From the sequence record OR352939.1: 64,000 nt of DNA; one strand, 5' to 3'. Shown here one piece after another: positions 10,349 to 59,182 of the stretch (positions within the stretch are counted from its first letter, which is position 1; each line of letters opens with the position of its first letter). The stretch comes from Escherichia phage AV109. The notes beneath the pieces are model-generated. The model was given only the letters and a program-made list of their open reading frames with translations, made no database searches and had not been told where the DNA came from. The position numbers and the translations under genes were made by a program.

Positions 10349-10370
10349 ATGGGAGACTCCGGTCTCCCAT
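10349..10370 (+). terminator. rho-independent terminator after gene 23
   Basis: 9-bp stem ATGGGAGAC/GTCTCCCAT with UCCG loop followed by a T-rich run. Confidence 0.6.
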
Positions 10371-10378
10371 TCTTGTTT

Positions 10379-11038
10379 CTATAGCTTAAAACAATCATCG
10401 CGTTCATTAATCCAATTTCTTATAGTTTTTGCGGATACGTTAAAGAATTCGGCAGCGTAATCGTAGTGGTTAAATTCATGGCCTTTAATAGAAATATCCA
10501 CAAATACAAATTTCTTACCTTTATTAGAATTCTTTCTAATTTTTGCTTTATGCTCTTCTGATAGTTTTCTACCTTTAAGATGAGAATCTCTATTTTTATA
10601 AAACTTTTTATTTGCTATAGATTTGTTTTCTCGATGTTCTTTAGATTCTTTAGAACCTAATTTCTTTTTAGATATTTTGGCCCGAACTTCTTCAGTCATA
10701 CCAGCTTTTGTCTTTTCGGATAACATCTCACGATACCCAGGTTCCTGTAAAGCTACTATAACAGGATTACCCTTGCCGCCTAAGGCTGCATTATAAGTAT
10801 CTGTTCTCATGACAAAAGCCTCGTCAACTAGTTCGGCTTCCTTAGCATACATCTCTTCAGATGTTTCGAAATTGAAAAGGATTTCCTTTTTAAAATTCTC
10901 TAAGCCGTATTTCTTTATGGATTTTACTATGTTAACCCCGGAACCCATATAAGAATCGTTAACATCTGTGGTGGCATGGGCTCCAACATAAATCTTGTTA
11001 TTAATGAGATTGGTTATTTTGTAAATTAAATAATTCAT
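10379..11038 (-). CDS. free-standing GIY-YIG homing endonuclease (SegD-like position between genes 23 and 24)
   Basis: N-terminal YKITN...KIYVG GIY-YIG motif, lysine-rich NUMOD-like middle, C-terminal DNA-binding tail. Confidence 0.85.
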   Translation of the reverse strand: MNYLIYKITNLINNKIYVGAHATTDVNDSYMGSGVNIVKSIKKYGLENFKKEILFNFETSEEMYAKEAELVDEAFVMRTDTYNAALGGKGNPVIVALQEPGYREMLSEKTKAGMTEEVRAKISKKKLGSKESKEHRENKSIANKKFYKNRDSHLKGRKLSEEHKAKIRKNSNKGKKFVFVDISIKGHEFNHYDYAAEFFNVSAKTIRNWINERDDCFKL

Positions 11039-11041
11039 ATT

Positions 11042-11308
11042 TTATGCTGCTTTGACACGTCGGTTGATGATATCACGGAAGTCAATACGATTTTCTTGGA
11101 TTTTCAGCCAGTTACCAGATTTGTCTTTGGTATGGGTAGAATATTCACCGTTCCACCAGAAGTCAGTTTCATAAGCCAGGGCTTCGTATTTCTTAACCAA
11201 TGCATTAACTGCATTACCGTTAGGATTGGTACCAAATTTTTCTACCAGAGCTTTGATGTCTTTGTCAAGGTTAGAAAGTGTGGTACGGATAAAGTTTAAT
11301 TTGTTCAT
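11042..11308 (-). CDS. hypothetical protein (88 aa from the SD-preceded ATG)
   Basis: ORF track 11042..11323; start moved to the ATG preceded by GAGGAG; early promoter upstream. Confidence 0.5.
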   Translation of the reverse strand: MNKLNFIRTTLSNLDKDIKALVEKFGTNPNGNAVNALVKKYEALAYETDFWWNGEYSTHTKDKSGNWLKIQENRIDFRDIINRRVKAA

Positions 11309-11337
11309 TTTTAATCTCCTCATGTTTTGATAGGTCT

Positions 11338-11367
11338 ATAGTAACACGACGCTTTTTGTGTGTAAAC
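11338..11367 (-). promoter_or_regulatory. T4-type early promoter (-35 GTTTAC, 18-nt spacer, extended -10 TGnTACTAT)
   Basis: sigma70-like hexamers with T4-early GTTTAC -35; member of a repeated family. Confidence 0.6.
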
Positions 11368-13844: not shown

Positions 13845-14096
13845 TTAGAACTTGATTTCTATCCAATGTCCGTCACGTTGGTCATGATTAATTTTGTACT
13901 GAAAGCCATTATCACGTAACCACTGCCCGACTTGCTCGGTGATAGTTAAATCATTCTTTGATGGATAGTACGTGAATTGTGTCTGACCTTTGTCAGCGGC
14001 TTTCTCTGCCATCACAGAGAAGTTAGCAATAAAATCTTTCAACAAATTGGCTTTAGTGGCCAGAGCCCTTTCTCTTAATTCCTGTGCAAAACTCAT
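13845..14096 (-). CDS. hypothetical protein (T4 24.2-like position)
   Basis: 83-aa ORF, ATG start, overlaps next gene by 4 nt. Confidence 0.55.
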   Translation of the reverse strand: MSFAQELRERALATKANLLKDFIANFSVMAEKAADKGQTQFTYYPSKNDLTITEQVGQWLRDNGFQYKINHDQRDGHWIEIKF

Positions 14097-14299
14097 TTCT
14101 TCACCTTTTTATTAATCAGACGTTTACGGTATACAACTTTTTCTTTTGCTTTAAACTTTGACCGAGCTGTCTCGGCTTTAGTCCATAGTAATCCAACTTC
14201 TTTAGGTTGTAAACCGATTTTTTGAGCAATTTCTACGAATGAAAATCCCACCTCATGTAATGTATAAACTTCAACTTCAGCTCTCATAATCAATCCCAT
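14093..14299 (-). CDS. hypothetical protein (T4 24.3-like position)
   Basis: 68-aa ORF, basic C-terminus. Confidence 0.55.
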   Translation of the reverse strand: MGLIMRAEVEVYTLHEVGFSFVEIAQKIGLQPKEVGLLWTKAETARSKFKAKEKVVYRKRLINKKVKK

Positions 14300-26353: not shown

Positions 26354-26647
26354 TTATTTACGGAATGAAAGGAATGCTGGTGCTCGGAATGGAGTATCAT
26401 CTTTAGAGTATTTAACTAATACGACCATTGGTACCTCTGTTTCTAAATGACCTGTCAATACACCGATAAAAATTTGATCAGTGTGCTCAGGGTCACGAAA
26501 GTTTTTAAGAGGTTCCATAGCAATATGGAATGCACCTGGGAATACTCGATTCAATTCGTCAATCACAGCTTCGTTAAAAACATCATCCGCTGGGATAACA
26601 TCTTCAACTACTAGTTCTTGACCATTAAAGCGAAGCATAGATTTCAT
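26354..26647 (-). CDS. hypothetical protein (alt.-x-like), 97 aa from the SD-preceded ATG
   Basis: ORF track 26354..26719 begins at a TTG inside the promoter; ATG at 26647 is preceded by GAGGAAAA. Confidence 0.55.
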   Translation of the reverse strand: MKSMLRFNGQELVVEDVIPADDVFNEAVIDELNRVFPGAFHIAMEPLKNFRDPEHTDQIFIGVLTGHLETEVPMVVLVKYSKDDTPFRAPAFLSFRK

Positions 26648-26676
26648 AACGTTTTCCTCATGTTGTTGATTGGATG

Positions 26677-26706
26677 ATAGTATCACACATCCATGTGCTT
26701 GTAAAC
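26677..26706 (-). promoter_or_regulatory. T4-type early promoter (-35 GTTTAC, extended -10 TGnTACTAT)
   Basis: repeat-family promoter overlapping the alt stop codon. Confidence 0.55.
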
Positions 26707-32302: not shown

Positions 32303-32497
32303 TTATCCTCGCTTTAAACATTTGATTACAGACAGTTCACCACCCATGCGAACGTCTTCAGTTCCATCGACCCATAGGACGGTGTAGGCTTCTTTAATAG
32401 TAGCATTACCTAATTTAAAAGCAGGTAAAACCTTTGAAATCATACCAGGAATACCTATACCTTTTAACTGGACAGTTTGTGATAAGAATAGTTGCAT
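32303..32497 (-). CDS. hypothetical protein
   Basis: 64-aa ORF, tightly packed in the early operon. Confidence 0.5.
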   Translation of the reverse strand: MQLFLSQTVQLKGIGIPGMISKVLPAFKLGNATIKEAYTVLWVDGTEDVRMGGELSVIKCLKRG

Positions 32498-32822: not shown

Positions 32823-33188
32823 TTAGATATCAAACTCGTTAAGAACTACATCAAAGATTGCTTCAAGATGTTCAGGTTTAGCTCGGTTACTCAGGATATG
32901 ACGAATCCAAGTTTTAACTAAGAGTTTACGATTATCACCGTTCCAACAAGGATGAGTGCCTAAATCGCGTTCACGGAAATCATCATCTAAAGCGATTTTA
33001 AAGTTGGAACCTTCCTTAGTGATTGAAAGAGTGATACCGTTTTCAAATCGCATATAAACGTAGTTAGGAGTCATGCACTGCTCGATTTCACATACTGAAC
33101 CGTTTTCATGTTTCCACAAGCAAACCATGTCGATAGAACCAGCGATACCGTTAGAAACATATTTACGTTCGAAGTTGATGTAGTTCAT
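32823..33188 (-). CDS. hypothetical protein
   Basis: 121-aa ORF with early promoter and GGAG SD upstream. Confidence 0.55.
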   Translation of the reverse strand: MNYINFERKYVSNGIAGSIDMVCLWKHENGSVCEIEQCMTPNYVYMRFENGITLSITKEGSNFKIALDDDFRERDLGTHPCWNGDNRKLLVKTWIRHILSNRAKPEHLEAIFDVVLNEFDI

Positions 33189-33229
33189 TTTATTCTCCGG
33201 TTGTTTTATTGATTAGGTGGTACAAGTCT

Positions 33230-33258
33230 ATAGTAACACATCCTACAGGAGAGTAAAC
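33230..33258 (-). promoter_or_regulatory. T4-type early promoter (-35 GTTTAC, 17-nt spacer, extended -10 TGnTACTAT)
   Basis: repeat-family promoter downstream of the terminator hairpin. Confidence 0.55.
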
Positions 33259-33294
33259 ATCTTTTTAAACTTTTTCTGCCCTAAACGCACAAAA

Positions 33295-33312
33295 GGGAGA
33301 CCGAAGTCTCCC
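33295..33312 (-). terminator. terminator hairpin GGGAGAC-CGAA-GTCTCCC (UUCG loop in minus-strand RNA)
   Basis: perfect 7-bp stem followed on the minus strand by U4; exact copy of the hairpins at 50167 and 59165. Confidence 0.5.
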
Positions 33313-35303: not shown

Positions 35304-36295
35304 TATTGAACCTTATTAATATAAGTTAACAGCTCTTTAGTTTGTTCCCAACTGATGCACGCATCGGTAATGGAAACGCCATAGGACATATTATCAGAAA
35401 TTTTTTGATTTCCTTCATGTAGGAATGATTCTATCATAATTCCTTTGACCAAATCATTAGCTGCTAAATTTTTACCAATACCAATTTGATTGCTATAATG
35501 CCCATCAGCGTTTGCATGGCTACAGTCAACCATTACATAATGATTCAGACCTACTGCCCTTGCTTTGTTAGAAGCTTCTTGAATATCAGAAGAATGATAG
35601 TTCGGGCCGTTAGTCCCGCCACGCAATACGATATGCGTATTCTGATTACCTTCAGCTTCAACAATGCCTACAGTACCATCGACGTCCATACCCATATACC
35701 GATGAGGCCGCGCGGCACTATACATCGCGTCTGTAGCTACTTTAATAGAACCATTGGTTGCGTTCTTGAAGCCTACGCACATCGGTAGACCTGAAGCAAT
35801 TTCACGATGTGTCTGACTTTCAGTCGTACGGGCGCCAATAGCAACCCATGAGAAAATACCAGAAAGATACTTAATCGTGAATGGGTCTAATACTTCAGTT
35901 GCTAATGGAAGTCCCATACGTAGAAGTTTACGACACAATGTTCGTGCAACTATAAGACCGTGGTTCATATCAAAACTTCCGTCAAGATATGGATCATTTA
36001 CAAGACCTTTCCAACCTACGGTAGTTCGAGGCTTTTCAAAATAAACGCGCATCACTAACAGAACATTAGGAAGACGAGTTTGAAGTTCAGCCAGACGTTT
36101 GCCGTATTCAACAGCAGCAATAGGGTCATGAATTGAACAAGGACCTACAACAATAAGTTTGCGTGGGTCTTCACCGTTCATAATCGAATTAACTTGTTCG
36201 CGATGAGAAGCCACTTGTGATGCGTAAGCTTCCGACAAAGGAATAATCTCAGCCAGTTCTTTTGGAGAAATAAGTTTTCTGACGACAGGTAACAT
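35303..36295 (-). CDS. class I 3-deoxy-D-arabino-heptulosonate-7-phosphate (DAHP) synthase, AroG/AroF/AroH family
   Basis: 330 aa; long stretches identical to recalled E. coli AroG (GPCSIHDP, RVYFEKPRTTVGWKG, AIGARTTESQ, LRGG, SHAN, ESxLxEGNQ, SITDACI); SD AAGGA; stop overlaps the cd start. Confidence 0.92.
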   Translation of the reverse strand: MLPVVRKLISPKELAEIIPLSEAYASQVASHREQVNSIMNGEDPRKLIVVGPCSIHDPIAAVEYGKRLAELQTRLPNVLLVMRVYFEKPRTTVGWKGLVNDPYLDGSFDMNHGLIVARTLCRKLLRMGLPLATEVLDPFTIKYLSGIFSWVAIGARTTESQTHREIASGLPMCVGFKNATNGSIKVATDAMYSAARPHRYMGMDVDGTVGIVEAEGNQNTHIVLRGGTNGPNYHSSDIQEASNKARAVGLNHYVMVDCSHANADGHYSNQIGIGKNLAANDLVKGIMIESFLHEGNQKISDNMSYGVSITDACISWEQTKELLTYINKVQ

Positions 36296-36415
36296 AACAA
36301 TCCTTAGGAGATATAAACAGATTCTGATTCAACAATACCTTTAACCGGATTAGACAGGCTAAGTTGGTAGTGCTCAGATTTATGACCATTCTCGATAGTA
36401 ATGAGATAGCTCTCA

Positions 36416-36652
36416 TTATAGTGTTCCATATACTCGAGTTGCTTCAACAAGACCATCACTGCCTAATTTAAGATTAGTAATTTGGTCACCATCTTTAGGA
36501 TTAACGATTATGAGAAAAGAACGTGGAGATTCTTGAATAACTCGTAATGTTGCATCCTGGAAACGTTCAGACACTTTATTGATGAGTGCTTGAGCAAATT
36601 CTTTTACTTTAATCTGAAATTCGTGTACTGTAATTGGATTTTCACTTAGCAT
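36416..36652 (-). CDS. hypothetical protein
   Basis: 78-aa ORF behind an early promoter and conserved leader ATGAGGAAATCGAA. Confidence 0.5.
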   Translation of the reverse strand: MLSENPITVHEFQIKVKEFAQALINKVSERFQDATLRVIQESPRSFLIIVNPKDGDQITNLKLGSDGLVEATRVYGTL

Positions 36653-36678
36653 TTCGATTTCCTCATTTTGGTAGAGTC

Positions 36679-36708
36679 ATCATAACACAACTCTACAGTG
36701 TTGTAAAC
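36679..36708 (-). promoter_or_regulatory. T4-type early promoter (-35 GTTTAC, extended -10 TGnTATGAT)
   Basis: repeat-family promoter upstream of the 78-aa gene and DAHP synthase. Confidence 0.5.
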
Positions 36709-38475: not shown

Positions 38476-38774
38476 TATTTTATTCCTAAGAAAGTTTCAA
38501 GAATACGAATGTTATGCTCGCGCCGGTCTTTATTAATTTCAGCAACATTTTTATTAATTGACGTACTTCTAACGTTTGAAGAAATAAATTTAATCATATG
38601 ACTTTTGAGTTGTTGCAAATCCAACCCTTTTTCTTTAGCAGCTTTACGAAGAGCTTTACCTGCTTCATCTAGTGCCTTTGCTGCATCTTTGTCATAATCG
38701 ACAAGTGACATTCCACGGCAGATATCAATATACTCATCAGACCGTTTGATGTAATTCTCTAGTAATGTTTTCAT
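38475..38774 (-). CDS. hypothetical protein
   Basis: 99-aa ORF. Confidence 0.5.
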
Positions 38775-38831
38775 TTAGATTTCCTCAATTATCCATAGGA
38801 GCATTATACTCTGCTCCCGAGAGTTTGTAAA

Positions 38832-39056
38832 CTATTTTACTAAAGATTCAATATACTCATGAAGAGCTTTAGTAGCTACTGCCCACTTATTCTGATATTC
38901 ATTTTTCAGATTAGCACGAGACTGAACTAACAAGCGGTCATTAGTCGGAGGCAAAGATTCTAATCGTTGAATCTGGCGCCCATAAATCATAGCCGCCATT
39001 TCAGATTCATAGATAAGCCCTTTAATGTATTCATGCTGTTCTTTAGTCATTGGCAT
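38832..39056 (-). CDS. hypothetical protein
   Basis: 74-aa ORF overlapping the o-spanin gene end. Confidence 0.5.
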   Translation of the reverse strand: MPMTKEQHEYIKGLIYESEMAAMIYGRQIQRLESLPPTNDRLLVQSRANLKNEYQNKWAVATKALHEYIESLVK

Positions 39057-39337: not shown

Positions 39338-39690
39338 TCTGAGAGCTTCCTGAGGTCTTCTGCAAAGGAATCGAAGGACCTGTTGATTTGTTTTTCGACC
39401 AATCCTGGCTTACTTGCCACCACGTTCTTCTTCTTCGAATCCTGACGGAGCTTTTCATTTTCGGCCTTAAGTTGGTCAACTAAAACACGGTTCTTATAAG
39501 TCATTTCTTCGATTGACTGATATTGAACCTTGAAGTCGTCTAATACTTTAGCATTGTTTTTAGCGGTCTCTTTGACAGAAGCTAATTCAGTATTCAGCGA
39601 ATCGACTTTATGGTTCAGAAATGCTATTGTTACAGTAGCAACAACTGCAAAAGCTGCCACTACAATATATGATGCATTTACTTTAAGCAT
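39334..39690 (-). CDS. inner-membrane spanin (i-spanin; T4 pseT.3-like)
   Basis: N-terminal TM helix (IVVAAFAVVATVTIAF) followed by a coiled-coil-like region; paired with the lipoprotein gene. Confidence 0.7.
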   Translation of the reverse strand: MLKVNASYIVVAAFAVVATVTIAFLNHKVDSLNTELASVKETAKNNAKVLDDFKVQYQSIEEMTYKNRVLVDQLKAENEKLRQDSKKKNVVASKPGLVEKQINRSFDSFAEDLRKLSE

Positions 39691-40178
39691 GTTTGAATAA
39701 TCTCAATGATTTCGTCTCGGGATAATCCATTGATAAGAACTGTTTTAGGCCCGTCAGTTTGGATTTTGTATGATTCAAACAATACACACAACTCTTCTGC
39801 TGTATGATATGGGCTTGAGATTCCGAGACGGTTAAATTTGTCGGTAAGAGGGTCGCAAATAATATAGAATTTGATACCTGCGATATGTACGTTTGGTTGA
39901 CTAATATTAATGAACACATTAGCGTCATATTTAGTCAAATTGTTTTGAAGAAATTCTACCATAGAATTAACTGCTTCTGGCATCGCTTCGCGTTTCTCTT
40001 CAGCGTATCGGGTTGAATACTCTTTTTGTTTTACTTTCTTTTTAAGATTTTTGGCCAGTGTAACACGTAGGTCAGTAAGATAACCAACTGGACGTCCTTT
40101 CTTAAAGACCCGGATTCCGTCAGTTGTGTCTCCAAAAGCGTTTACGACCATATCGTTAGTAATCAATTGCATATTCAT
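39678..40178 (-). CDS. alc: Alc-like protein (inhibitor of host transcription)
   Basis: position between the spanin pair and rnlA as T4 alc; start moved from track 40220 to the ATG after GAGGAG, giving ~166 aa (T4 Alc ~167 aa). Confidence 0.7.
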   Translation of the reverse strand: MNMQLITNDMVVNAFGDTTDGIRVFKKGRPVGYLTDLRVTLAKNLKKKVKQKEYSTRYAEEKREAMPEAVNSMVEFLQNNLTKYDANVFINISQPNVHIAGIKFYIICDPLTDKFNRLGISSPYHTAEELCVLFESYKIQTDGPKTVLINGLSRDEIIEIIQTCLK

Positions 40179-40207
40179 AATTTTCTCCTCGTGTTGTTGA
40201 TAAACCC

Positions 40208-40237
40208 ATAGTATCACCATCCTTGGTGTTTGTAAAC
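40208..40237 (-). promoter_or_regulatory. T4-type early promoter (-35 GTTTAC, extended -10 TGnTACTAT)
   Basis: repeat-family promoter directly after the rnlA stop. Confidence 0.55.
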
Positions 40238-40239
40238 CG

Positions 40240-41373
<1,134 letters not shown>

Positions 41374-41421
41374 TCAGTTAGTTTTTTTTTAAATTGTACC
41401 ACAATCCTTGTGGTATGTAAA

Positions 41422-41832
41422 CTACTTTTTCTTATGTTGGATATTCCAAGGCGGGTTGAACTTTTTGATAAAAAGTGGTTCTTCAAGGTCCATTGTTGCG
41501 ATGGTCATTGAACCAAGTTCGTTGGTGACTGAAAGGTCAAAACATTGGCGGGCCCAGAATTCAACCTTTTTGCCTTGCATTAAGGCATCCAAAATCATAA
41601 GTGATTTTCTTGAATCTGAAGTCTGGTCTTTTCGATTTATGGCTGTTCGATAATAGTTAATGCGTTTCTTTAAATTCTTGGTTTTACCAATATACACAAG
41701 TTCGTCATCTATAGCAATAGCATATATAACATTTTTCTTATTAGGGGCATCAATGGTTTTAATTGTTGCATCTTCTAATAGCTCCAATTCTATATATTTA
41801 ATAAAGGAATATTCGGCGGCAATATCTTTCAT
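41422..41832 (-). CDS. denA: endonuclease II (GIY-YIG-like)
   Basis: 136 aa, same length and position as T4 DenA; VIYAIAIDDELVYIGKTKNLKKR motif. Confidence 0.85.
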   Translation of the reverse strand: MKDIAAEYSFIKYIELELLEDATIKTIDAPNKKNVIYAIAIDDELVYIGKTKNLKKRINYYRTAINRKDQTSDSRKSLMILDALMQGKKVEFWARQCFDLSVTNELGSMTIATMDLEEPLFIKKFNPPWNIQHKKK

Positions 41833-41858: not shown

Positions 41859-42361
41859 TTAGAAATATTTTTTGTATGAATTGATTACATTTTGGTCTAC
41901 ATCATTATCAATTTGTGCGACAAGATAAGAACTGATTTCAACTTCCTGAGGAGCTGCTTGAACTAAATCAGAGTTCAGATATTCACGAATCCAAGGATAA
42001 GGATGTTTGGTCGGAGCATCAGTAATTGGACACGGCAAACCACACTGTTTCATACGAGACACAGTCAAGTAATCAACAAAAGCACACATACTCTGTGTAT
42101 TGATACCTGGACATGTACCGTCTTTAAAGAGGTGTGCAGCCCATTCCTTCTCTTGACTATTTACTTCCATAAAAATGTCAACTGCTTCTTGTTCACATTC
42201 TTTAGCAATTTGAACCCACTCATCACCATCAGTACCGGATTGAAGTTGACGGATAATGTACTGAGTACCCTTGAGATGGAGTTGTTCGTCACGAGCAATG
42301 AACTTCATAATCTTTGCATTGCCTTCCATAATTTCCATATTCTTATGGAAATTAAATGTAC
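41859..42361 (-). CDS. nrdB: ribonucleotide reductase small subunit NrdB, exon 2
   Basis: continues the NrdB sequence (..MEGNAKI..) after the intron; 3' splice site inferred after ..CGAACAUAACG, approximate. Confidence 0.85.
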
Positions 42362-42953
42362 CGTTATGTTCGATTGAGCTCGCTAATTCTCAACCCGTTC
42401 TCTTATGAACTGCTGCATATTACTATGCAGACCAGACTATATCACAATCCCGGAGGGATTCTCCCCATTTCGAGTCGCTTGACCCTACGTCCGAAGACTA
42501 GTCGTTGAACCTTGCTTTGCAATTGTCGCCGTGCCATCGTTTATATGTCGATGGTGATAAATCTTTCTTTTCACAATATGGACAATTCAATTGAATTCTA
42601 TTTGGATTTAATTTGCATCTGTCATTATGTTTTAGATAAAACCCAGGACCTTTACCAATGTGACCGCAGAAATCACATGTGATTTCTTTTTGTGCAGGAT
42701 GGGTTCCGTTCTTAACCATTTCTAATGTTTTTGCTGATGTTCTTCCATCAGAATCTTTAGGTATAGGCCCGTTAGCATCCATCCAAATTTTTCTATAATT
42801 CAATTGTGCATCCTCTTAAAAGTATAATCATATTTATTTTATAATATACTAATTAAAGGTGCAAGCAAAACCTTGGCTGCTAGTTTTCCTATAAAGGACT
42901 TTCCAGCAATTAAAGGAGTTTTCGATAAACGTTACCGTTTAAAGGCGCATTTT
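42362..42953 (-). mobile_element. group I intron in nrdB (about 592 nt) with degenerate homing-endonuclease ORF
   Basis: NrdB reading frame interrupted by an in-frame stop right after ..YVSFA; intron core shares conserved segments with the td intron; splice sites inferred. Confidence 0.8.
42498..42803 (-). CDS. intron-encoded ORF, probable degenerate HNH homing endonuclease (I-TevIII-like remnant)
   Basis: 101 aa; N-terminal WMDANGPIPKD resembles HNH endonuclease starts but lacks an intact HNH motif; Cys-rich Zn-finger-like C-terminus. Confidence 0.55.
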   Translation of the reverse strand: MNYRKIWMDANGPIPKDSDGRTSAKTLEMVKNGTHPAQKEITCDFCGHIGKGPGFYLKHNDRCKLNPNRIQLNCPYCEKKDLSPSTYKRWHGDNCKARFND

Positions 42954-43629
42954 ACGCAAAAGATACATAAAAACGAATAGCTTCCAATGCATTGATGACA
43001 TGCAAACAAAGATAAAGAGATTTCATTAGGTCTCGTTTAGCTTCGGTCTCTTGTTTAATAGCTCGGTTTAAACGAAGGTCGGCATCAGGAGATTCTTTAG
43101 CTTGTTCTACAAATTCTTTAGCATTTTCCCAATTACGAGTCTTGACTAGAACATCATCATAATATTTACCTATTGATTCAGCTCGTTTCATGATTGCTTC
43201 GTCTAATACAATCTCATCAAATACTTTGGATGGATCGGTATAAAGATTTCGCATAATATGAGTATACGAACGAGAGTGAATAGTTTCACTGAATGTCCAT
43301 GTTGCAACCCACGTATCTAATGAAGGGTCGGAAAGCAGTGCCATAAGTACCGCAGATGGGGCCCTGCCTTGGATAGAATCTAATAATGATTGATACTTAA
43401 GGTTGTTTGTAAAGATGTCCTGTTGGAACTGAGGAAGCTTATTGAACTGGGCCGAATCCAGCATCAGGTTTACTTCTTCTGGTCGCCAGAAAAACGACAA
43501 TTGCTTTTCAATAAGTTCTTCAAAAACTTTATGTCGCTGAATATCATAACGTGCGAGGCCAAGACCAGAACCAAAGAACATTGGTTCATTCAAAACATCG
43601 ACTTGTTGTGTGTTAAAAACTGTACTCAT
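42954..43629 (-). CDS. nrdB: ribonucleotide reductase small subunit NrdB, exon 1
   Basis: 225 codons of NrdB-like sequence ending ..RFYVSFA before the intron. Confidence 0.9.
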
Positions 43630-43684: not shown

Positions 43685-45949
43685 TTAAAGCTTACAAGCA
43701 GAACAATCTTCAGCTTTAGGTGTTTCTAATTCATAGTCATCTGTACCTGACCCATCACGAGTGTTATGATAGTAGAGGTTTTTTCCGCCAAAGTACCAGA
43801 AGTAAAGCAGATCGTCAAGCATTACTGACATTGGCACTTTACCTTTCTCAAATACTGCAGGGTCATAGTAAGTATTAGCAGAAGCAGATTGGCACACCCA
43901 TTTCAACATGATAGCAACTTGGGTCAAATAAGGTTTATTACCTTTCTTAGCAAGTTTCCACGCGTAGTCGTAAAGACTCATGTTATGTTCTATATTAGGA
44001 ACAACCTGTCGGAAGTTGCCTTCTTTAGATTCTTTAATACTTACAGGTCCACGAGGTGGTTCTATACCATTTGTGCTATTTGAGACTTGACTGCTTGACT
44101 CACAAGGCATGAGTGCAGACAACGTTGAGTTACGAATTCCATGTTCTTTGAGTTCAGCTCGAAGTTCTTCCCAGTCACAGACATAGTTCGGGGCTGCGAT
44201 TTGGTCAATCTTTTTATTGTACCAGTCGATAGGTAATTCGCCTCTAGACCATTTAGTGTCTGAATAATACTCACAAGGTCCTTTTTCTTTGGCGAGTTTG
44301 ATTGATGCTTTGATAAGGCCATATTGCAATCTCTCGAACAATTCATGGGTCAAATCGTTAGCGTCTTCATATGAAGCAAAGTTAGAAGCTAACCATGCAG
44401 CATAGTTCGTCACACCAACACCGAGATTTCGACGCTTTTTAGCTTTTAAAGCTTCTGGAACCGGATAATCTTGATAGTCTAACAGGTTATCAAGTGCACG
44501 TACTTGTACTTCAGCAAGTTCATTAATTTTATCTTGGTCTTGCCAATCAAATTTATCTAATACAAAAGCAGATAATGTGCATAAACCAATTTCAGCATCA
44601 GGACCATTCACATCATTAGTTGGAATAGCGATTTCACAACATAAGTTACTCTGACGAATTGGAGCTTTTTCACGAATAAACGGAGTGTAGTTATTCGTGT
44701 TATCAACAAACTGTGGATAAATTCGAGCAGTGCCAGAACGTTCAGTCATGAACAATTCAAAGAGTTCTAGTGCTTTGATTCTTTTCTTTCTGATTGTTGG
44801 GTCTTTTTCAGCTTTCTCATAAAGCTCACGGAATTTATCTTGATCTTCAAAGAACGAGTAGTATAGTTCACCTGACATTTCGTGAGGGCTAAATAAAGTA
44901 ATATAATCATTTTTACCAAGGCGTTCCATCATAAGGTCATTAATCTGAATTCCGTAGTCCATATGTCGAATACGGTTTTCATCCACGCCTTTGTTATTTT
45001 TCAGAACTAATAGGTTCTCTACTTCTAAGTGCCACATCGGATAATACGCTGTAGCAGCACCACCACGAATACCACCTTGAGAACAAGATTTTACTGCAGT
45101 TTGGAAATGTTTCCAGAATGGAATAACACCCGTATGTCGGACTTCACCCATACCGATCTTAGAACCTTCTGCACGAAGCATACCAACGTTGATACCGATA
45201 CCAGCTCGTTTAGAAATATATTCAATAATTGATGCTGAAGTTTTGTTAATAGATTTTAACGAATCACCGGCTTCAATAACTACACAACTAGAGAACTGGC
45301 GAGTCGGAGTGCGAGCACCTGCCATAATTGGAGTAGGCAATGAAACTTGATGAGTAGAAACGGCATCATAAAAACGAATAATATGTTTCAAACGGTCATG
45401 AGTTTCGTCTTGATGTAAGGCCATACCAATAGCCATGATAGCAAACTGTGGAGTTTCATAAATCTTCCCAGTTGTTTTATCTTTAACCAAGTATTTTTCT
45501 TTAAGCTGCATAGCACCAGCATAAGTCAGGTCAAAGTCTCGTTCATGTTTAATCTGTGAATCGAGATAAATGATTTCTTCTGCTGAATATTTAGACAACA
45601 ACTCAGGGTCATATTTGCCTTCATTAACACAGTAAGAAATATGGTCGATAAAAGCAGGCGGTTCAAACTGCCCATATACATCTTTACGAAGTGCAAACAT
45701 TAGCCCTTTGGCGGCGACATACTGATAATCGGGTTCTTCGACAGAAATCAAGTTAGCTGCAACTTTAATACAAATCTTCTGAATATCTTTGGTGCTCATC
45801 CCATCAACCAGATGAGTCTTAATTTCTTCATACAATTCGTATGGGTCGATTTGTGTTCCTTCACACTGCCAAGTTAATACTTGAATAATTTTCTGTGCAT
45901 CAAAATTTTGGGATACACCTGAATTTTTCACTACTTTAAAATTATACAT
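43685..45949 (-). CDS. nrdA: ribonucleotide reductase large subunit NrdA
   Basis: 754 aa, same length as T4 NrdA; near-identical to recalled T4 sequence over long stretches. Confidence 0.97.
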   Translation of the reverse strand: MYNFKVVKNSGVSQNFDAQKIIQVLTWQCEGTQIDPYELYEEIKTHLVDGMSTKDIQKICIKVAANLISVEEPDYQYVAAKGLMFALRKDVYGQFEPPAFIDHISYCVNEGKYDPELLSKYSAEEIIYLDSQIKHERDFDLTYAGAMQLKEKYLVKDKTTGKIYETPQFAIMAIGMALHQDETHDRLKHIIRFYDAVSTHQVSLPTPIMAGARTPTRQFSSCVVIEAGDSLKSINKTSASIIEYISKRAGIGINVGMLRAEGSKIGMGEVRHTGVIPFWKHFQTAVKSCSQGGIRGGAATAYYPMWHLEVENLLVLKNNKGVDENRIRHMDYGIQINDLMMERLGKNDYITLFSPHEMSGELYYSFFEDQDKFRELYEKAEKDPTIRKKRIKALELFELFMTERSGTARIYPQFVDNTNNYTPFIREKAPIRQSNLCCEIAIPTNDVNGPDAEIGLCTLSAFVLDKFDWQDQDKINELAEVQVRALDNLLDYQDYPVPEALKAKKRRNLGVGVTNYAAWLASNFASYEDANDLTHELFERLQYGLIKASIKLAKEKGPCEYYSDTKWSRGELPIDWYNKKIDQIAAPNYVCDWEELRAELKEHGIRNSTLSALMPCESSSQVSNSTNGIEPPRGPVSIKESKEGNFRQVVPNIEHNMSLYDYAWKLAKKGNKPYLTQVAIMLKWVCQSASANTYYDPAVFEKGKVPMSVMLDDLLYFWYFGGKNLYYHNTRDGSGTDDYELETPKAEDCSACKL

Positions 45950-46577
45950 AATAATTCCATGTTGGATAATTTGATGATTTTAGACGGCGTCTAACCGTTT
46001 GGGTGCTCATAGATAAAATTATTGACGCTTCATTTAATGTATCATATATTACGTCGTTTATAATTACTTTCTTTGCAAATGGATTCTTAGCTCCTATCAT
46101 AGCGTTAGAAATAGCTTGCTTAGTTGATTCTTTTAATGGGACTCCTTTAGAAATTTTTGTTTTAATTTTTATATTGTATTGTCCGCGTTTTTTACCTAAT
46201 AAAGAATTTCGTATCTTTTCTTTAGTCTCTTCAGATTTAACATGTCCTAGTTTGGAACGAGATATTTTATCTTTTGTTTTTTGGTCTAATTTTCGCCCTT
46301 TAAGCAAATCAACCATTTTTGCTCTAGCCCATCCAAATTCTTTATTATTTCTAGAACTCATTAAATTAACCGCGGTTGCTAAACCTAAATTGTTCGGATA
46401 TATTTTTAATAAAAGAAGATGAGCCAAATAATGTTCTGAATATGTTAATTTAACTAGATTGTATGACTCATTGGTGCCACCTAAACATTTTGGGATTATA
46501 TGATGCCATTCACCATCGATATCTTCAAAATTTCTTTCTTTATTTACTAAGTTTTTATATATTTTTAAATAATCCAT
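45942..46577 (-). CDS. free-standing HNH homing endonuclease with NUMOD-like repeats
   Basis: HNH motif EWHHIIPK...NLVKLTYSEHYLAH; repeated ETKEKIR/STKQAIS motifs; track start 46589 is a GTG, ATG at 46577; overlaps nrdA start by 8 nt. Confidence 0.8.
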   Translation of the reverse strand: MDYLKIYKNLVNKERNFEDIDGEWHHIIPKCLGGTNESYNLVKLTYSEHYLAHLLLLKIYPNNLGLATAVNLMSSRNNKEFGWARAKMVDLLKGRKLDQKTKDKISRSKLGHVKSEETKEKIRNSLLGKKRGQYNIKIKTKISKGVPLKESTKQAISNAMIGAKNPFAKKVIINDVIYDTLNEASIILSMSTQTVRRRLKSSNYPTWNYYV

Positions 46578-46653
46578 AGTATAATCCACTTTGTAGTATC
46601 AACGGGATAGTATTTATCCCGTTAATTTTATTATACACTTTTAAACTGAAGCG

Positions 46654-46909: not shown

Positions 46910-47221
46910 TTATACCGCCATTTTAGCTTTGATAGCTGGATGTGATTCGTAATTTTTAAGAACGAAATCAGAATGTGTCATCGTTCCGGTAACCCAGTCC
47001 ATTTGGATTTTTGTAGGCCAATTCTCAAAATTACTAGGCCAATTAATTTCAAGAGAACATAACTCTTTAGGTTCACGACGAAGAACTTCTTTGCATTGTT
47101 CTACATGATTGCTGTAGATATGCGTGTTGCCGCCTGAGAACACTAAATCACCTGGGATAAGGTTACACATCTTCGCTACAATATGTGTCAAGGCAGCGTA
47201 CGAGGCGATGTTGAACGGTAG
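46910..47221 (-). CDS. td: thymidylate synthase, exon 2
   Basis: LPFNIASYAAL.. continues the ThyA sequence; 3' splice site ..AUAAUG|CUA as in T4 td. Confidence 0.92.
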   Translation of the reverse strand, partial: LPFNIASYAALTHIVAKMCNLIPGDLVFSGGNTHIYSNHVEQCKEVLRREPKELCSLEINWPSNFENWPTKIQMDWVTGTMTHSDFVLKNYESHPAIKAKMAV

Positions 47222-48237
47222 CATTATGTTCAGATAAGGTCGTTAATCTTATCCCGGAATTATATCCAGCTGCATGTCACCATGCAGAGCAGACTATATC
47301 TCCAACTTGTTAAAGCAAGTTGTCTATCGTTTCGAGTCACTTGACCCTACTCCCTAAAGGGATAGTCGTTAGGCATTTATGTAGAACCAATTCCACTTAT
47401 CAGATTTTACACGGTAAGTAACTAATCCTGATGAAATTTCAAAATGTCTAGCCGCATCGGCTGCACATTCAAAAATAATCCCATCGCATGAAATCTTTTT
47501 GATGTTAGCTGGCTTTTTGCCTTTCATCTTTTCAGATAGTTTAGTTTTAGTTTTTTCTGAATGTTTGTGATTAAAGAACGGGTTATTTTCACCTGAACGT
47601 TTTCGGCACTTTCCACAAGTATCGGCCGAAGATGGTATGCGAACACCGCATTTACAAAACTTGTGGTTTTCTGGATTCCATCGGCCATTTTTACTTCCGT
47701 GTTTACCATAAAGAGCTTTCCGACCATCAGGACCAAGCTTAAGCATCTTAGCTTTAACAGTTTCAGCTCGTTTCTTAGCAATTTCTTCTTTTAATGGATG
47801 ATTTGAAAGCACATCGCCAAAAGACGCATCAGCAATATTATATCCATTAATTTTAGAATTTAGCTCTTTAATCCAAAAATTTTCTCGTTCAATAATCAAA
47901 TCTTTCTCATATGGAATTTCTTCCAGTATAGAGCATTCAAAAACATTACCATGTTTATTAAAAGACCTTTGAAATTTTATAGAAGAGTGAACACCGTTTT
48001 CAAGGTCTTTAAAATGTCTCTTCCATCTTTTCTCAAAATCTTTAGCACTTCCAACATACACTTTACCGTTTAAAGTGTTTTTAATCTGATAAATTCCGCT
48101 TTTCATAAACACCTCTTTTTATATAGAAGTATTTATTAAAGGGTAGTCCTACAATTTAGCACGGGATTGTCTACTAGAGAGGTCCCCCGTTTAGATAGAT
48201 TACAAGTATAAGTCACCTTATACCTAGGCCTAAATTA
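47222..48237 (-). mobile_element. group I intron in td (1016 nt) carrying I-TevI
   Basis: 5' end UAAUUUAGGCCUAGGUAUAAGGUGACUUAUACUUGUAAUCUAUCUAAACGGGG matches the recalled T4 td intron; length 1016 as in T4. Confidence 0.92.
47369..48106 (-). CDS. I-TevI: GIY-YIG homing endonuclease I-TevI (intron-encoded)
   Basis: 245 aa from the ATG at 48106 (track starts at an upstream GTG); near-identical to recalled T4 I-TevI. Confidence 0.93.
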   Translation of the reverse strand: MKSGIYQIKNTLNGKVYVGSAKDFEKRWKRHFKDLENGVHSSIKFQRSFNKHGNVFECSILEEIPYEKDLIIERENFWIKELNSKINGYNIADASFGDVLSNHPLKEEIAKKRAETVKAKMLKLGPDGRKALYGKHGSKNGRWNPENHKFCKCGVRIPSSADTCGKCRKRSGENNPFFNHKHSEKTKTKLSEKMKGKKPANIKKISCDGIIFECAADAARHFEISSGLVTYRVKSDKWNWFYINA

Positions 48238-48786
48238 ACCTAAGAAAACATCTACACTGCGTTGATACCATTGTAAATCAAGATGTCCATTACGCACATT
48301 AAATTGATAGAACATATGACAAGGAGGAAGAGCCATTTGATTTATTTCAGCCGGATTCCAGGCAGAAACAATTTGACGACGATCAGTTGGTAATTTTTTA
48401 ATACGGTCGATTGTTTCAACTAATTGGTCTACACCACCAAAATCACGCCATTGCTTACCATAAATAGGACCAAGTTCGCCGCTATGATATCCAAGGTCTT
48501 TTGCCTGATTTTCATAGTTGTCGTCCCAAATAGTTTTACCTTGAATAAGACTACCATGAGTACGAATACGCAAATCATTAACATTTGTAGAGCCAGACAT
48601 GAACCATAATAGCTCAGCAATACAAGCTTTCCATGCAAGCTTCTTGGTTGTTACTGCAGGAAATCCTTTAGTCAGATCCCATCGCAATTTAGTTCCGAAC
48701 AGGGCAATAGTGCCGGTACCTGTACGGTCGTCTGTTTCGTAGCCATTTTCTAGGATATCATTAATCAGGTATTGGTATTGTTTCAT
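48238..48786 (-). CDS. td: thymidylate synthase, exon 1
   Basis: 183 codons ending ..QRSVDVFLG immediately before the intron UAA. Confidence 0.93.
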
Positions 48787-49373: not shown

Positions 49374-49622
49374 TTATTTCCTCAGATTTTTCTTAACAAC
49401 TTTCCAATCAGCTTTAAACGATTCAACATCAGAGTGGTGAATCCAGAATCCTGCACTTTCACCATCTTCGTAGAGTGGACATCCATCGCATTCTTCGTTC
49501 CAACCCATTTCACGTAAAGCTTCTTCAGCTTGTTCAAGGAGTTCAGCGTCTTTACCAACGATGTTGAAGTACCATTTACCTCTAACTTCAGAATCTTTGA
49601 TGCTCTGGCGTTGCAATCTCAT
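49374..49622 (-). CDS. hypothetical protein (frd.1-like position), 82 aa from ATG
   Basis: track ORF starts at a GTG at 49685; the ATG at 49622 is preceded by GAAGGAG. Confidence 0.5.
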   Translation of the reverse strand: MRLQRQSIKDSEVRGKWYFNIVGKDAELLEQAEEALREMGWNEECDGCPLYEDGESAGFWIHHSDVESFKADWKVVKKNLRK

Positions 49623-49684
49623 TTTATTCTCCTTCACTTTTGATTTGATAGGGCTACTATAACATAACCCTATCTGATTATACA

Positions 49685-50077
49685 CTACTTTTTAAAAGTT
49701 TTTTGCAAAAGTTTGATGATTTCGTCGACGTTGGTTTCATCTACGATACAATGGATTTTTGTTACACCTAAAGTTATACCTTCGTTAGTAGGTTGAGGCT
49801 TTACTAAATCTACTTCAATAAAGTATTTGAACTCGTCAGGATAAATCTCGAAATAAGTTTCAATTTCACCACCGGCAGAACATACAGTACCGTCTTCCAT
49901 AGTTACACTTACTACGTTTGACGTATCGCTATCATAATCAGGTTCCATTCCGTTTACAACAAAACTAGGCCCATGGAGTTCAATCAATTTTAACATCTTA
50001 GCGTTATTGTGTGGTGCTTCTTGAACAAAGTCGTCTTTAAATAAAGGGTTAATGATATAAGATTTTCCGATTTCCAT
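49685..50077 (-). CDS. hypothetical protein (frd.2-like position)
   Basis: 130-aa ORF behind an early promoter and conserved leader. Confidence 0.55.
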   Translation of the reverse strand: MEIGKSYIINPLFKDDFVQEAPHNNAKMLKLIELHGPSFVVNGMEPDYDSDTSNVVSVTMEDGTVCSAGGEIETYFEIYPDEFKYFIEVDLVKPQPTNEGITLGVTKIHCIVDETNVDEIIKLLQKTFKK

Positions 50078-50106
50078 TTTGATTTCCTCATGTTGTTGAT
50101 AGGTCT

Positions 50107-50135
50107 ATACTAACACATCCAGGGAAGAAGTAAAC
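50107..50135 (-). promoter_or_regulatory. T4-type early promoter (-35 GTTTAC, 17-nt spacer, extended -10 TGnTAGTAT)
   Basis: repeat-family promoter downstream of the gene 32 terminator. Confidence 0.55.
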
Positions 50136-50166: not shown

Positions 50167-50184
50167 GGGAGACCGAAGTCTCCC
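50167..50184 (-). terminator. terminator hairpin GGGAGAC-CGAA-GTCTCCC after gene 32
   Basis: perfect 7-bp stem, UUCG loop in the mRNA, U4 downstream. Confidence 0.55.
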
Positions 50185-51861: not shown

Positions 51862-52537
51862 AGTTCCATCCAGGCCATTTTGAAGATTTAAGTCTATATG
51901 TAACTAAAGACGCAGAAATATTAAAAACATTTGAAACTTCTTTACACGAGGCGTATTTTATACCATCAATAATTATAGGTTTTTGTTTTTTAATAGTTCT
52001 TTCTTTAGAATGCGGCTTTGAATTTGCTATTCTAAGAGCTTCTTTGGTTGAATCAGGCATCGGCTTATTCGTTTTTCGCCCTTTTCGGACTTTACTCAAG
52101 GCCAATTTGTGAGCTTCAGATAGTTTCTTACCCTTATTAGGTGACGGTATTTTTCTTTCTAGTCTTGTTTTAGATACTTTAGCCTTAGTCTCTTCAGATC
52201 TAGGTTTACCTAATTTAGAAAGTGAAATAGACCTTTTAGCTTCATCACTTTGTTTTTTACCAGGACCACCTTTACCACCGGGAACTAAGTTATAAGTATC
52301 ATCTCGCAAAACAAAATCTTCATTAACCAATTCTGCTTCTTTTTTATAGGCGTCCTTGTCATTATCATATTCATAAAGAATTTCGGTATAAAAATTTTTT
52401 AGTCCATATTTAGCTTTGGCCGCTAATATAGCGCGGCCTGATCCAATATACCAATCTTTCTCTTTATGTTTTTTGTGTACGCCTATATAAATTTTACCAT
52501 TTATTTTATTGGTAGTTTTATACACAACGTATTTCAT
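51854..52537 (-). CDS. free-standing GIY-YIG homing endonuclease (Seg-like) between genes 33 and 59
   Basis: N-terminal YKTTNKINGKIYIG GIY-YIG motif, NUMOD-like Lys/Ser repeats, C-terminal DNA-binding region; ATGA overlap with gene 33 and 8-nt overlap with gene 59. Confidence 0.85.
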   Translation of the reverse strand: MKYVVYKTTNKINGKIYIGVHKKHKEKDWYIGSGRAILAAKAKYGLKNFYTEILYEYDNDKDAYKKEAELVNEDFVLRDDTYNLVPGGKGGPGKKQSDEAKRSISLSKLGKPRSEETKAKVSKTRLERKIPSPNKGKKLSEAHKLALSKVRKGRKTNKPMPDSTKEALRIANSKPHSKERTIKKQKPIIIDGIKYASCKEVSNVFNISASLVTYRLKSSKWPGWNYD

Positions 52538-53137: not shown

Positions 53138-54044
53138 TAATTACACTTGTTAATTTAGAAAGACCAGATTTTACAAAGTATGAATAAATCTTGCCTTTAG
53201 GTTGTGGTTTATATGAGTTATAATACTCTATAATGGTTGAAGCAATATTATCAGGGATATAATCAAAATCAATGAGAACCAAATTTTCTTGATACCGTTT
53301 ATATTCTTCTGCACTTAATAATACTTCAGCTTGAGAACGGTCATTAGCAATTGCTTCAATAATCGTTGTTTTCATGCTCGGAGTTCGTTCACCATCAACT
53401 CTGGTAAACCAGAAGTCACCACGAACTCGAACAGATGCAACGCCGTCTTTACGGTCACCTTTAAGAATTTTAGTCATGCAATCAATTTCAGCAGAACCGT
53501 TCTTAATTTTAACCCATTTTTTCTGTGGTGGCGACCACTGTTTAACGTTAGGATATTTGTGTAATTGTGTAAAGTCACCATCTGATGCAACAATACATAC
53601 CTTATGACCGGCTAATGACAAATATTTAGTTAATACACCGATATGGTCATCCGCTTCATACTTGTCAATATCCATTACAACGTATGGCATGTATTTCTTA
53701 ATCTCATCAACAACTTGATGGAGTGCAGTAAAATATCCTTCCCAATCCCACTTTGAAGCTTCACGATCGGTTTTACGATTTTTCTTGTAATAGTAAGCAA
53801 AATCACGTCGCCAATAACCTGAAGTAGCATTATCCATACACAATACAAATTTTGTATAGCCTTGCTTACGGAACATCACTACGTTTTTACGAATTGAATT
53901 CAAGATTACATGGCGAACCATCGGAACAGTAATTTTATCGCCGTCTTCAAAGTTGTTTAATGCGGCTGCCAATGCAATGTTACTAAAGTCGGCAAGTGCA
54001 ATACCTTCTTTGTAATCTTCATCCAACATCATTTCTAAATCCAT
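53127..54044 (-). CDS. rnh: RNase H / 5'-3' exonuclease
   Basis: 305 aa; near-identical to recalled T4 RNase H. Confidence 0.95.
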   Translation of the reverse strand: MDLEMMLDEDYKEGIALADFSNIALAAALNNFEDGDKITVPMVRHVILNSIRKNVVMFRKQGYTKFVLCMDNATSGYWRRDFAYYYKKNRKTDREASKWDWEGYFTALHQVVDEIKKYMPYVVMDIDKYEADDHIGVLTKYLSLAGHKVCIVASDGDFTQLHKYPNVKQWSPPQKKWVKIKNGSAEIDCMTKILKGDRKDGVASVRVRGDFWFTRVDGERTPSMKTTIIEAIANDRSQAEVLLSAEEYKRYQENLVLIDFDYIPDNIASTIIEYYNSYKPQPKGKIYSYFVKSGLSKLTSVINEF

Positions 54045-54076
54045 ATGAACCTCTTGTTCAGTTAGTCAACTTGTCT

Positions 54077-54106
54077 ATAGTAACACACTCATTTGAAAGC
54101 GTAAAC
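54077..54106 (-). promoter_or_regulatory. T4-type early promoter for rnh (-35 GTTTAC, 18-nt spacer, extended -10 TGnTACTAT)
   Basis: repeat-family promoter; its -35 lies 3 nt from the divergent gene 34 late promoter. Confidence 0.55.
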
Positions 54107-59164: not shown

Positions 59165-59182
59165 GGGAGACCGAAGTCTCCC
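59165..59182 (+). terminator. rho-independent terminator after gene 35 (GGGAGAC-CGAA-GTCTCCC + T5)
   Basis: perfect 7-bp stem followed by ATTTTTGT. Confidence 0.6.

Follow-up and report, generated by a model that had tools for sequence, protein, structure and literature searches.

The cassette upstream of frd.2 raises the question of why a promoter, together with the first part of its transcript, should recur in similar form upstream of many genes of one phage. According to the initial annotation it belongs to a family of early promoters in which promoter and leader are duplicated or exchanged as a unit. At issue are the class of promoter, the extent of the shared sequence and the source of the likeness.

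The window, i.e. the whole stretch of 64,000 nucleotides of Escherichia phage AV109 (OR352939.1) that was analyzed, was 99.98% identical to bases 1-64000 of phage AV114 (OR352944.1), with eight mismatches and two single-base indels, and matched it 100% between window bases 48000 and 56000. From about 18 kb to 46 kb the coordinates of the window and OR352944.1 are one base apart. AV114 is a Mosigvirus, RB69-like, of the T4 family (Straboviridae, Tevenvirinae), and the prereplicative genes are on the minus strand at 10-54 kb of the window. The genome-wide set consisted of 41 minus-strand cassettes of AV114, selected only by the two hexamers and a downstream Shine-Dalgarno sequence and ATG, and the family set of 183 non-redundant cassettes obtained by a pattern scan of IMG/VR. 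Alignment of the window with RB69 gave 11 indels, and their junction sequences were then inspected.

The repeated architecture was present at all seven minus-strand sites reported initially, each upstream of an ORF, in the form GTTTAC-N17/18-TAnnAT. The more specific -10 sequence TA(C/G)TAT applied to six of them, the site at 36679 having TATGAT instead. With a 17-nt spacer, GTTTAC-N17-TA[CG]TAT was found twice in the window against about 0.03 matches expected, and with an 18-nt spacer (GTTTAC-N18-TA[CG]TAT) five times against about 0.04; neither count was reached in any of 100 shuffles, and the two patterns together gave seven matches where about 0.07 were expected. Six of these matches are sites of the initial annotation, and the seventh, at 14185-14214, is absent from it. 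The seven sites are real, as "at least seven" had it, but the window holds 11 cassettes in total, the additional ones being at 14185-14214, 38803-38832, 41393-41422 and 49656-49685, and the AV114 genome about 41. The description of the promoters as near-identical proved too strong, since whole cassettes are 62-78% identical to one another. The phage-specific GTTTAC model singles out the cassettes and the generic TTGACA model does not: a generic sigma-70 scan of the window returned 65 promoter-like sites against 61.6 in shuffles. A terminator scan of the window likewise gave 14 terminator-like sites against 12.4 in shuffles, and an Rfam scan of the window at gathering thresholds gave no hits.

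An almost invariant leader had been described for four copies. The sequence CCTCATGTTGTTGAT was exact in two, at 26656 and 50086, and present with one mismatch at 40187, while at the 11338 site the copy is one base short. When up to two mismatches were allowed, four matches were found against 0.17 expected; the fourth, at 53706-53720 on the minus strand with two mismatches, was rejected as unrelated. The distance of 7 nt to the start codon is right if counted from GAGGA, but the end of the leader lies 5-6 nt before the ATG. In the form ATCAA[C/A]AACA[T/C]GAGGA the leader defines a small sub-family with three copies in AV114, all of them within the window, and two in RB69.

All window sites are on the early-gene strand and are followed after 26-41 nt by an ATG with a Shine-Dalgarno sequence before it, only the promoter inside gene 24.3 having a longer leader (Table 1). 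Nine of the 11 cassettes have 26-33 nt between the -10 and the ATG. The TAG or TAA stop codon of the upstream gene directly abuts GTTTAC at 26706, 36708, 38832 and 41422.

Table 1. Promoter-leader cassettes and associated terminator hairpins in the window.
Feature	Coordinates	Strand	Counterpart	Sequence elements
Cassette upstream of 88-aa ORF and segD	11306..11367	-	RB69 Pe:109605	GTTTAC-N18-TACTAT; leader with one-base-shorter ATCAAAACATGAGGAG; ATG at 11308
Promoter inside gene 24.3, drives 24.2 (predicted)	14094..14214	-	RB69 Pe:112451	GTTTAC-N18-TACTAT at 14214-14185; 88-nt leader to 24.2
alt.-3 cassette	26645..26706	-	RB69 Pe:125323; orthologous T4 early promoter	-35 abuts alt stop codon; leader ATCAACAACATGAGGAAA; ATG at 26647
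Hybrid cassette, 30.8-type promoter and leader fused to 30.7 ORF	33186..33258	-	RB69 Pe:132117 and Pe:131670	
Terminator hairpin	33295..33312	-		GGGAGACTTCGGTCTCCC; 36 nt upstream of 30.7 cassette -35
cd.2 cassette	36650..36708	-	RB69 Pe:134561; Pe133295 of the T4 record, between cd.2 and cd.3	-10 TATGAT; 7-8 bp inverted repeat GTAGAGT/ACTCTAC on both sides of -10
Cassette upstream of RB69-ORF231c-like gene	38772..38832	-	RB69 Pe:136687	GTTTAC-N18-TATAAT (38803-38832); inverted repeat GGGAGCA/TGCTCC(T) on both sides of -10
alc cassette	40176..40237	-	RB69 Pe:138093; orthologous T4 early promoter	Leader ATCAACAACACGAGGAGA; Shine-Dalgarno-preceded ATG at 40178
rnlA cassette	41362..41422	-	RB69 Pe:139277	GTTTAC-N18-TACAAT; hairpin ACCACAA/TTGTGGT within spacer
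frd.1 cassette	49620..49685	-	RB69 Pe:145300	Degenerate -35, GTGTAT-N18-TATAGT; palindrome ATAGGGTTAT/ATAGTAGCCCTAT around -10; ATG at 49622
frd.2 cassette (locus of the initial annotation)	50075..50135	-	RB69 Pe:146013	-35 GTTTAC 50135-50130; 17-nt spacer; -10 TAGTAT 50112-50107; leader AGACCTATCAACAACATGAGGAAATCAAA; ATG 50077-50075
Gene 32 terminator hairpin	50167..50184	-		GGGAGACTTCGGTCTCCC then TTTT; 31 nt upstream of frd.2 cassette -35
rnh cassette	54042..54106	-	RB69 Pe:149309; orthologous T4 early promoter	GTTTAC-N18-TACTAT; leader differs from shared leader

The identification as early promoters was supported. In the T4-type early promoter consensus an A-tract precedes the GTTTAC of the -35, and the -10 hexamer is joined by TGn (PMC2988021, PMC1524935); the T4 early promoter has been reviewed as an "uber" UP/-35/TGn/-10 promoter with additional consensus regions (Hinton 2010, PMC2988021). 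The window sites have GTTTAC, a spacer of 17-18 nt and a -10 of the form TAnnnT, the exception being 49656-49685 with its -35 GTGTAT. The 41 AV114 cassettes also show the extended -10 TGn (T-15 0.99 bits, G-14 1.52 bits) and an A-rich UP-like tract, with A enriched in the eight positions preceding the -35, and both features can be seen at the window sites as well. These features, as well as the C-rich positions -3 to -1 and the early-gene orientation, are the same as in the T4 and RB69 early promoters (PMC1524935, PMC2988021). For RB69, early promoters were predicted by Nolan et al. 2006, who noted the C-rich -3 to -1 (PMC1524935), their number being 57 in the text of the paper and 58 in its coordinate list (Additional file 3; PMC1524935). 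That list holds a counterpart for all 11 window sites in one-to-one synteny, including every site of the initial annotation. By RB69 synteny the downstream genes are a small ORF and segD, 24.2, alt.-3, 30.7, cd.2, an ORF231c-like gene, alc, rnlA, frd.1, frd.2 and rnh. T4 has early-type promoters upstream of alt.-3, 30.7, 30.8, cd.2, alc, frd.3 and rnh, and a majority of the initially annotated sites have a T4 early promoter at the same place.

The predicted promoter activity and early timing are taken from this homology. The motif set very probably represents sigma-70-dependent early promoters of an RB69-like phage, organized as compact promoter-leader cassettes that recombine with each other. 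As promoters, the window elements are already known in kind. Each cassette would begin with an A-rich UP-like tract followed by GTTTAC, a 17-18 nt spacer with TG at -15/-14, the -10 TAyWAT and a CCT-A start site, and continue with an A/C-rich 5' UTR of 20-27 nt beginning AUCAA, a GAGGA or GGAG Shine-Dalgarno sequence and the ATG. Judging from sequence and synteny, unmodified host RNA polymerase would fire the cassettes straight after infection, which would express alt.-3, 30.7, cd.2, alc, rnlA, frd.1, frd.2, rnh and small ORFs.

Conservation past the promoter hexamers into the 5' UTR had been claimed for the window copies, and it holds genome-wide. Among the 41 AV114 cassettes similarity was not limited to the -35 and -10 hexamers but amounted to 0.5-1.25 bits per position from -3 to +6. 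The information profile was 1.5 bits at G-14, 1.25 at C-3, 0.76 at C-2, 0.91 at T-1 and 0.80 at A+1, and each of the positions +2 to +6 (TCAAA) had 0.5-0.75 bits. Shared outside the hexamers are the A-tract, the TG at -15/-14, a CCT-A start site and, within the transcript, ATCAA. The published T4 and RB69 logos end at the start site, whereas conservation in the window and AV114 cassettes goes on into +1 to +8 (ATCAAnAA). A further difference from the description of the T4 and RB69 early promoters is the fixed length of the leader, seen in the distances from the -10 to the ATG given above.

The extended conservation is probably in part functional, reflecting promoter strength and the translation initiation region and not being a trace of exchange. 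The likeness past the hexamers probably has two causes: selection for a very strong promoter and translation start would maintain it, and homologous recombination between cassettes, which the junction sequences show, homogenizes them and at the same time deletes, inserts or swaps the intervening genes. A RegB/S1 cleavage site as the cause of the leader conservation was considered and rejected, being at best a partial factor: the consensus GGAGRAYARAA (PMC3014915) was matched by only five of the 41 leaders, and in the window only by the 30.7 leader.

One such junction was found at the 30.7 locus. Window bases 33172-33265 match RB69 twice, at P30.7 and at P30.8, and in RB69 gene 30.8 lies between the two. 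In the window the 30.7 ORF follows the P30.8 promoter and leader, and the crossover falls within GGAGAATAAAATGAAC, which both cassettes share. Gene 30.8 is kept in almost all of the 741 T-even records matching the region, and it is missing from AV114 (and the window), AV116 and T2, where the crossover point differs in each. In AV116 the sequence switches from P30.8 to P30.7 just after the -10, and T2 has a T4-type P30.8 cassette fused at the Shine-Dalgarno sequence. Three distinct crossover points imply that tandem cassettes recombined independently no fewer than two or three times.

The other junctions inside cassettes concern the frd region and the segD locus. In RB69 the leader sequence of 50075-50100 stands both before and after ORF245c; this ORF of 228 nt has the same length as T4 frd.3, and about 150 records besides the window are without it. 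The spacer and -10 of the frd.2 cassette differ from those of RB69 although the flanks are about 95% identical, which makes the frd.2 cassette a mosaic. At the segD locus the -35 of the 11338 cassette is where the homology between the window and RB69 resumes (11361), and the genes downstream are different. Altogether, three of the 11 indels between the window and RB69 have a junction inside a cassette, while cassettes cover 1.5% of the aligned sequence (rough binomial P = 0.004). The automatic count was two of 11, as it had the 30.7 duplication bracketing the whole cassette, and inspection, which placed that crossover inside, raised it to three.

Paralogous cassettes also resemble each other more than their intergeneric orthologues do. 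T4 Palt.-3 and Palc are 89% identical and the corresponding pair in the window 78%, whereas the alt.-3 and alc promoter orthologues of T4 and Mosigvirus are only 63-71% identical, which equals the background for any two cassettes. In sequence terms, the pattern of the alt.-3 and alc promoter pairs is that of concerted evolution. Together with the junctions inside cassettes it supports the whole-cassette exchange that had been proposed, and read from their junctions the events are homologous recombination between cassettes and not transposition, the cassettes serving as recombination substrates.

Functional convergence alone, each cassette being separately optimized for polymerase binding, promoter escape and ribosome loading with no exchange, is an unlikely explanation of the likeness. 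It would account for the -3 to +6 consensus common to 41 cassettes with otherwise different spacers and leaders, and it agrees with the YCT-A start context found in T4 too, with the additional consensus regions of T4 early promoters described in reviews (PMC2988021) and with the synteny of most sites across genera. As the sole explanation, however, it is contradicted by the hybrid cassettes, the gene loss between tandem cassettes and the three crossover points at the junctions, as well as by paralogues that are more alike than orthologues and by IMG/VR cassettes that combine the arms of two hairpin types.

Recombination between promoter-leader cassettes has a known parallel, and the promoter-early stem-loop (PeSL) cassettes of T4-type phages, named in the initial annotation, proved the right comparison (PMC2839356, PMC4122927). 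They are known in RB49/phi1, T4/PST and KVP40/nt-1 (Arbiol 2010, PMC2839356; Comeau 2014, PMC4122927); no paper describing them for RB69-like phages was found in the literature searched. The composite is the same, with an AT-rich region, a sigma-70-type promoter, for the family at large a stem-loop, a Shine-Dalgarno sequence and an ATG in many copies upstream of small ORFs. The indel and replacement junctions between close relatives likewise map between the -10 and the ATG (PMC2839356, PMC4122927), and the stems are placed between the -35 and -10 or overlap the -10. The present elements join the promoter to the Shine-Dalgarno sequence and ATG, have the upstream stop codon in their AT-rich 5' part and contain indel and replacement junctions. 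A stem-loop is found in the family as represented by the AV114 and IMG/VR sets; of the 11 window sites, two have an upstream terminator hairpin and four a short stem. The stems differ from those of PeSLs in being without G/C tracts and a U-run and in that the 3' arm is often the Shine-Dalgarno sequence; in RB49, stems overlapping the -10 were read as terminators by Arbiol et al. (PMC2839356).

The results support the view that the elements are early promoters already catalogued for RB69, behaving as PeSL-type recombining cassettes. The idea of the recombining regulatory cassette is thereby extended to the RB69 group, the loss of 30.8 in three phages being a clean natural case, and the cassettes mark points of gene deletion or swap between related phages. 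Raw-sequence reading was also shown to be able to recover the early regulon of a phage.

Something new may come only from the covarying pairing between spacer and Shine-Dalgarno sequence. Many AV114 spacers are the reverse complement of their own leader, as in GTTTAC-TTCTCCTCTAGTTG-tgtTACTAT-agacctgt-CAACTAGAGGAGAA, where 14 of 14 positions pair. In the 41 AV114 cassettes the cognate spacer-leader duplex had an energy of -10.1 kcal/mol against -7.1 kcal/mol for non-cognate combinations (permutation p < 5e-5), and in the 183 IMG/VR cassettes the means were -9.9 and -7.2 kcal/mol (z = -16.6). In the latter set, 20% of the cognate and 1.7% of the non-cognate pairs reached energies of -15 kcal/mol or lower, and about 30% of cassettes pair at -12 kcal/mol or lower.

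The stems fall into two classes. In class a the Shine-Dalgarno sequence lies within the 3' arm, and T4 Palc and Palt.-3 belong here with -21 to -23 kcal/mol. Class b stems are short and tight around the -10, with arms such as TAGGACTA/TAGTCCTA, GGGCTAT/TAGCCC and GGTACAGG/CCTGTACC. The Shine-Dalgarno sequence forms part of over half of the strong stems. In an alignment of 25 class a sequences whose only anchors were the spacer CTCC and the leader GGAG, eight of the 14 pairs vary on both sides. The covariation score was 0.259 against 0.102 in shuffled alignments, none of 500 reaching the observed value, and slid registers gave at most 0.105. In the window the stems are weak, the best being those at 38803 (-12.7 kcal/mol) and 36679 (-10.6 kcal/mol), and those at 41393 and 49656 are, like these two, short. 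Single-sequence folding of nine window cassettes gave z-scores from -1.7 to +1.4, none of them significant, and a stem-loop is thus not established from these sites alone. Since the 3' arms are followed by no U-run and the stems contain no G/C tracts, intrinsic terminators are unlikely.

In some of the IMG/VR cassettes (L011-L130) the 5' and 3' arms belong to different hairpin types, e.g. ATCTCCATTAG with CTACTGGAGGT. Such cassettes resemble products of recombination between the -10 and the leader in which the pairing is broken.

The same inverted repeats could be read as DNA elements, the spacer, discriminator and palindromes forming operators for a phage or host protein, e.g. an early-promoter shut-off factor. 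How early promoters are shut off is described as not fully understood (PMC3014915, PMC2988021), and inverted repeats straddle the -10 in many cassettes. Pairing was moreover equal on both strands, as for a DNA palindrome (sense -9.92, antisense -9.72 kcal/mol, p = 0.23), with no sign of RNA-specific pairing, so that this comparison fits an RNA-level role and a DNA-level inverted repeat alike. Operators are nevertheless improbable, because the arms vary widely yet stay complementary (TAGGACTA, GGAGCA, GGTACAGG, TTCTCCTCTAGTTG and others), which amounts to covariation and leaves no common recognition sequence, and because a DNA operator would not need the Shine-Dalgarno sequence that so many of the strong stems contain.

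Since the 5' arm precedes the start site, the helix could form at the RNA level in read-through transcripts only. The spacer-leader complementarity of a substantial minority of the family would most plausibly hide the ribosome-binding site in such transcripts. It is conceivable, as a tentative proposal, that this constitutes a genome-wide translational gate in T-even and RB69-like phages, the spacer of a substantial minority of cassettes acting as an anti-Shine-Dalgarno arm, so that the ORF would be translated only from transcripts of its own early promoter and would stay silent on read-through RNA. The T4 genes e, soc, 49, I-TevI and segB have translational control by a promoter inside a hairpin (PMC3014915, PMC2988022), and there too the 5' arm lies upstream of the proximal start and the 3' arm over the Shine-Dalgarno sequence, the helix forming only in read-through transcripts. 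The T4 hairpin genes are reportedly all late and have late promoters (TATAAATA), whereas the embedded promoter here is of the early type, which would make the arrangement a variant of the T4 e/soc/I-TevI gate and not a member of it. In many members of the family, T4 Palc and Palt.-3 among them, the Shine-Dalgarno sequence is paired and the start site lies inside the hairpin; of the window sites only 33230 pairs its Shine-Dalgarno sequence, and it does so weakly. If functional, the pairing would be an early-promoter version of the classic hairpin translational control of T4 and would offer a testable reason for promoter conservation well outside the polymerase contact elements. Such a gate would mirror the hairpins known from late genes, and recombination between cassettes would reshuffle its arms and rewire it.

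Whether the cassettes are mobile, as their resemblance to mobile promoter cassettes had suggested, was assessed by comparing their positions with those in related phages. Recombination between resident copies is the only sense in which the term applies, T4, RB69 and this phage having most of the window sites at shared loci. An autonomous mobile element, either MITE- or transposon-like or borne by a homing endonuclease, that inserts cassettes at new sites is very improbable: the cassettes are a multi-copy intergenic repeat and one copy lies beside segD, but inspection of the cassettes showed no terminal repeats, target duplications or transposase, no cassette was seen at a non-syntenic site flanked by target-site duplications, and the observed events are deletions or replacements between resident copies at positions shared by T4, RB69 and AV114.

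Recombination between cassettes is one of several routes of rearrangement, as further indels in the window involve homing endonucleases or short gene-boundary repeats of other kinds. Four insertions in comparison to RB69 are homing-endonuclease genes (42361-42956, 45919-46601, 47221-48239 and 51862-52534), of which nrdB and td contain one each and the other two lie in the nrdA/nrdA.2 and 59/33 intervals. Both td and nrdB are split, although no group I intron was found in the window at the Rfam gathering score. A gene annotated as DAHP synthase (2-keto-3-deoxy-D-arabino-heptulosonate-7-phosphate synthase) at 35307-36400, between cd and cd.2, is absent from RB69, and the insertion is flanked by the repeated stop/start overlap ATAATGA(A/G)AGCTA. 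Also absent from RB69 is an ORF of 64 aa at the position of T4 30.5 (32307-32495), with a stop/start overlap and no cassette at the junction. At the segD locus (10379-11367) an early-type cassette and a small ORF precede segD, and RB69 has unrelated small ORFs there. According to a T4 review, no segD promoter was found in that phage and no T4 endonuclease-specific promoter is early (PMC2988022).

That the elements could be MotA/AsiA-dependent middle promoters and not early ones is hardly credible, since, although rnlA, frd and rnh are prereplicative genes also expressed in the middle mode in T4 and T4 rnlA has a MotA-box promoter, the window sites have GTTTAC at -35, a search of the window cassettes found no MotA box TGCTT at -30, and their RB69 counterparts are classed as early. 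At the rnlA locus (41393-41422) both this phage and RB69 have an early-type GTTTAC promoter, and T4 has a middle promoter with a MotA box (TGCTT). By motif, the promoter class is switched at this conserved position between T4 on the one hand and this phage and RB69 on the other.

The remark that longest-ORF calls run into the promoters was correct, and it is true of the GenBank annotation of alc and frd.1 as well. The deposited AV114 annotation places the alc start at 40221, inside the promoter spacer (window 39678-40237), and the frd.1 start at the GTG at 49685, inside its own -35 (window 49374-49685). The Shine-Dalgarno-preceded ATGs of the two genes (Table 1) give the T4/RB69 protein lengths of 166 and 82 aa, respectively, and the deposited gene starts are corrected here to these positions.

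An upstream terminator hairpin is not a constant part of the cassette, only two of the 11 window sites having one. The 18-nt hairpin GGGAGACTTCGGTCTCCC itself is present, besides the two copies in Table 1, at 59165-59182 (-) and 10351-10368 (+); with three exact copies and one with a single mismatch it forms a second repeated regulatory module in the window.
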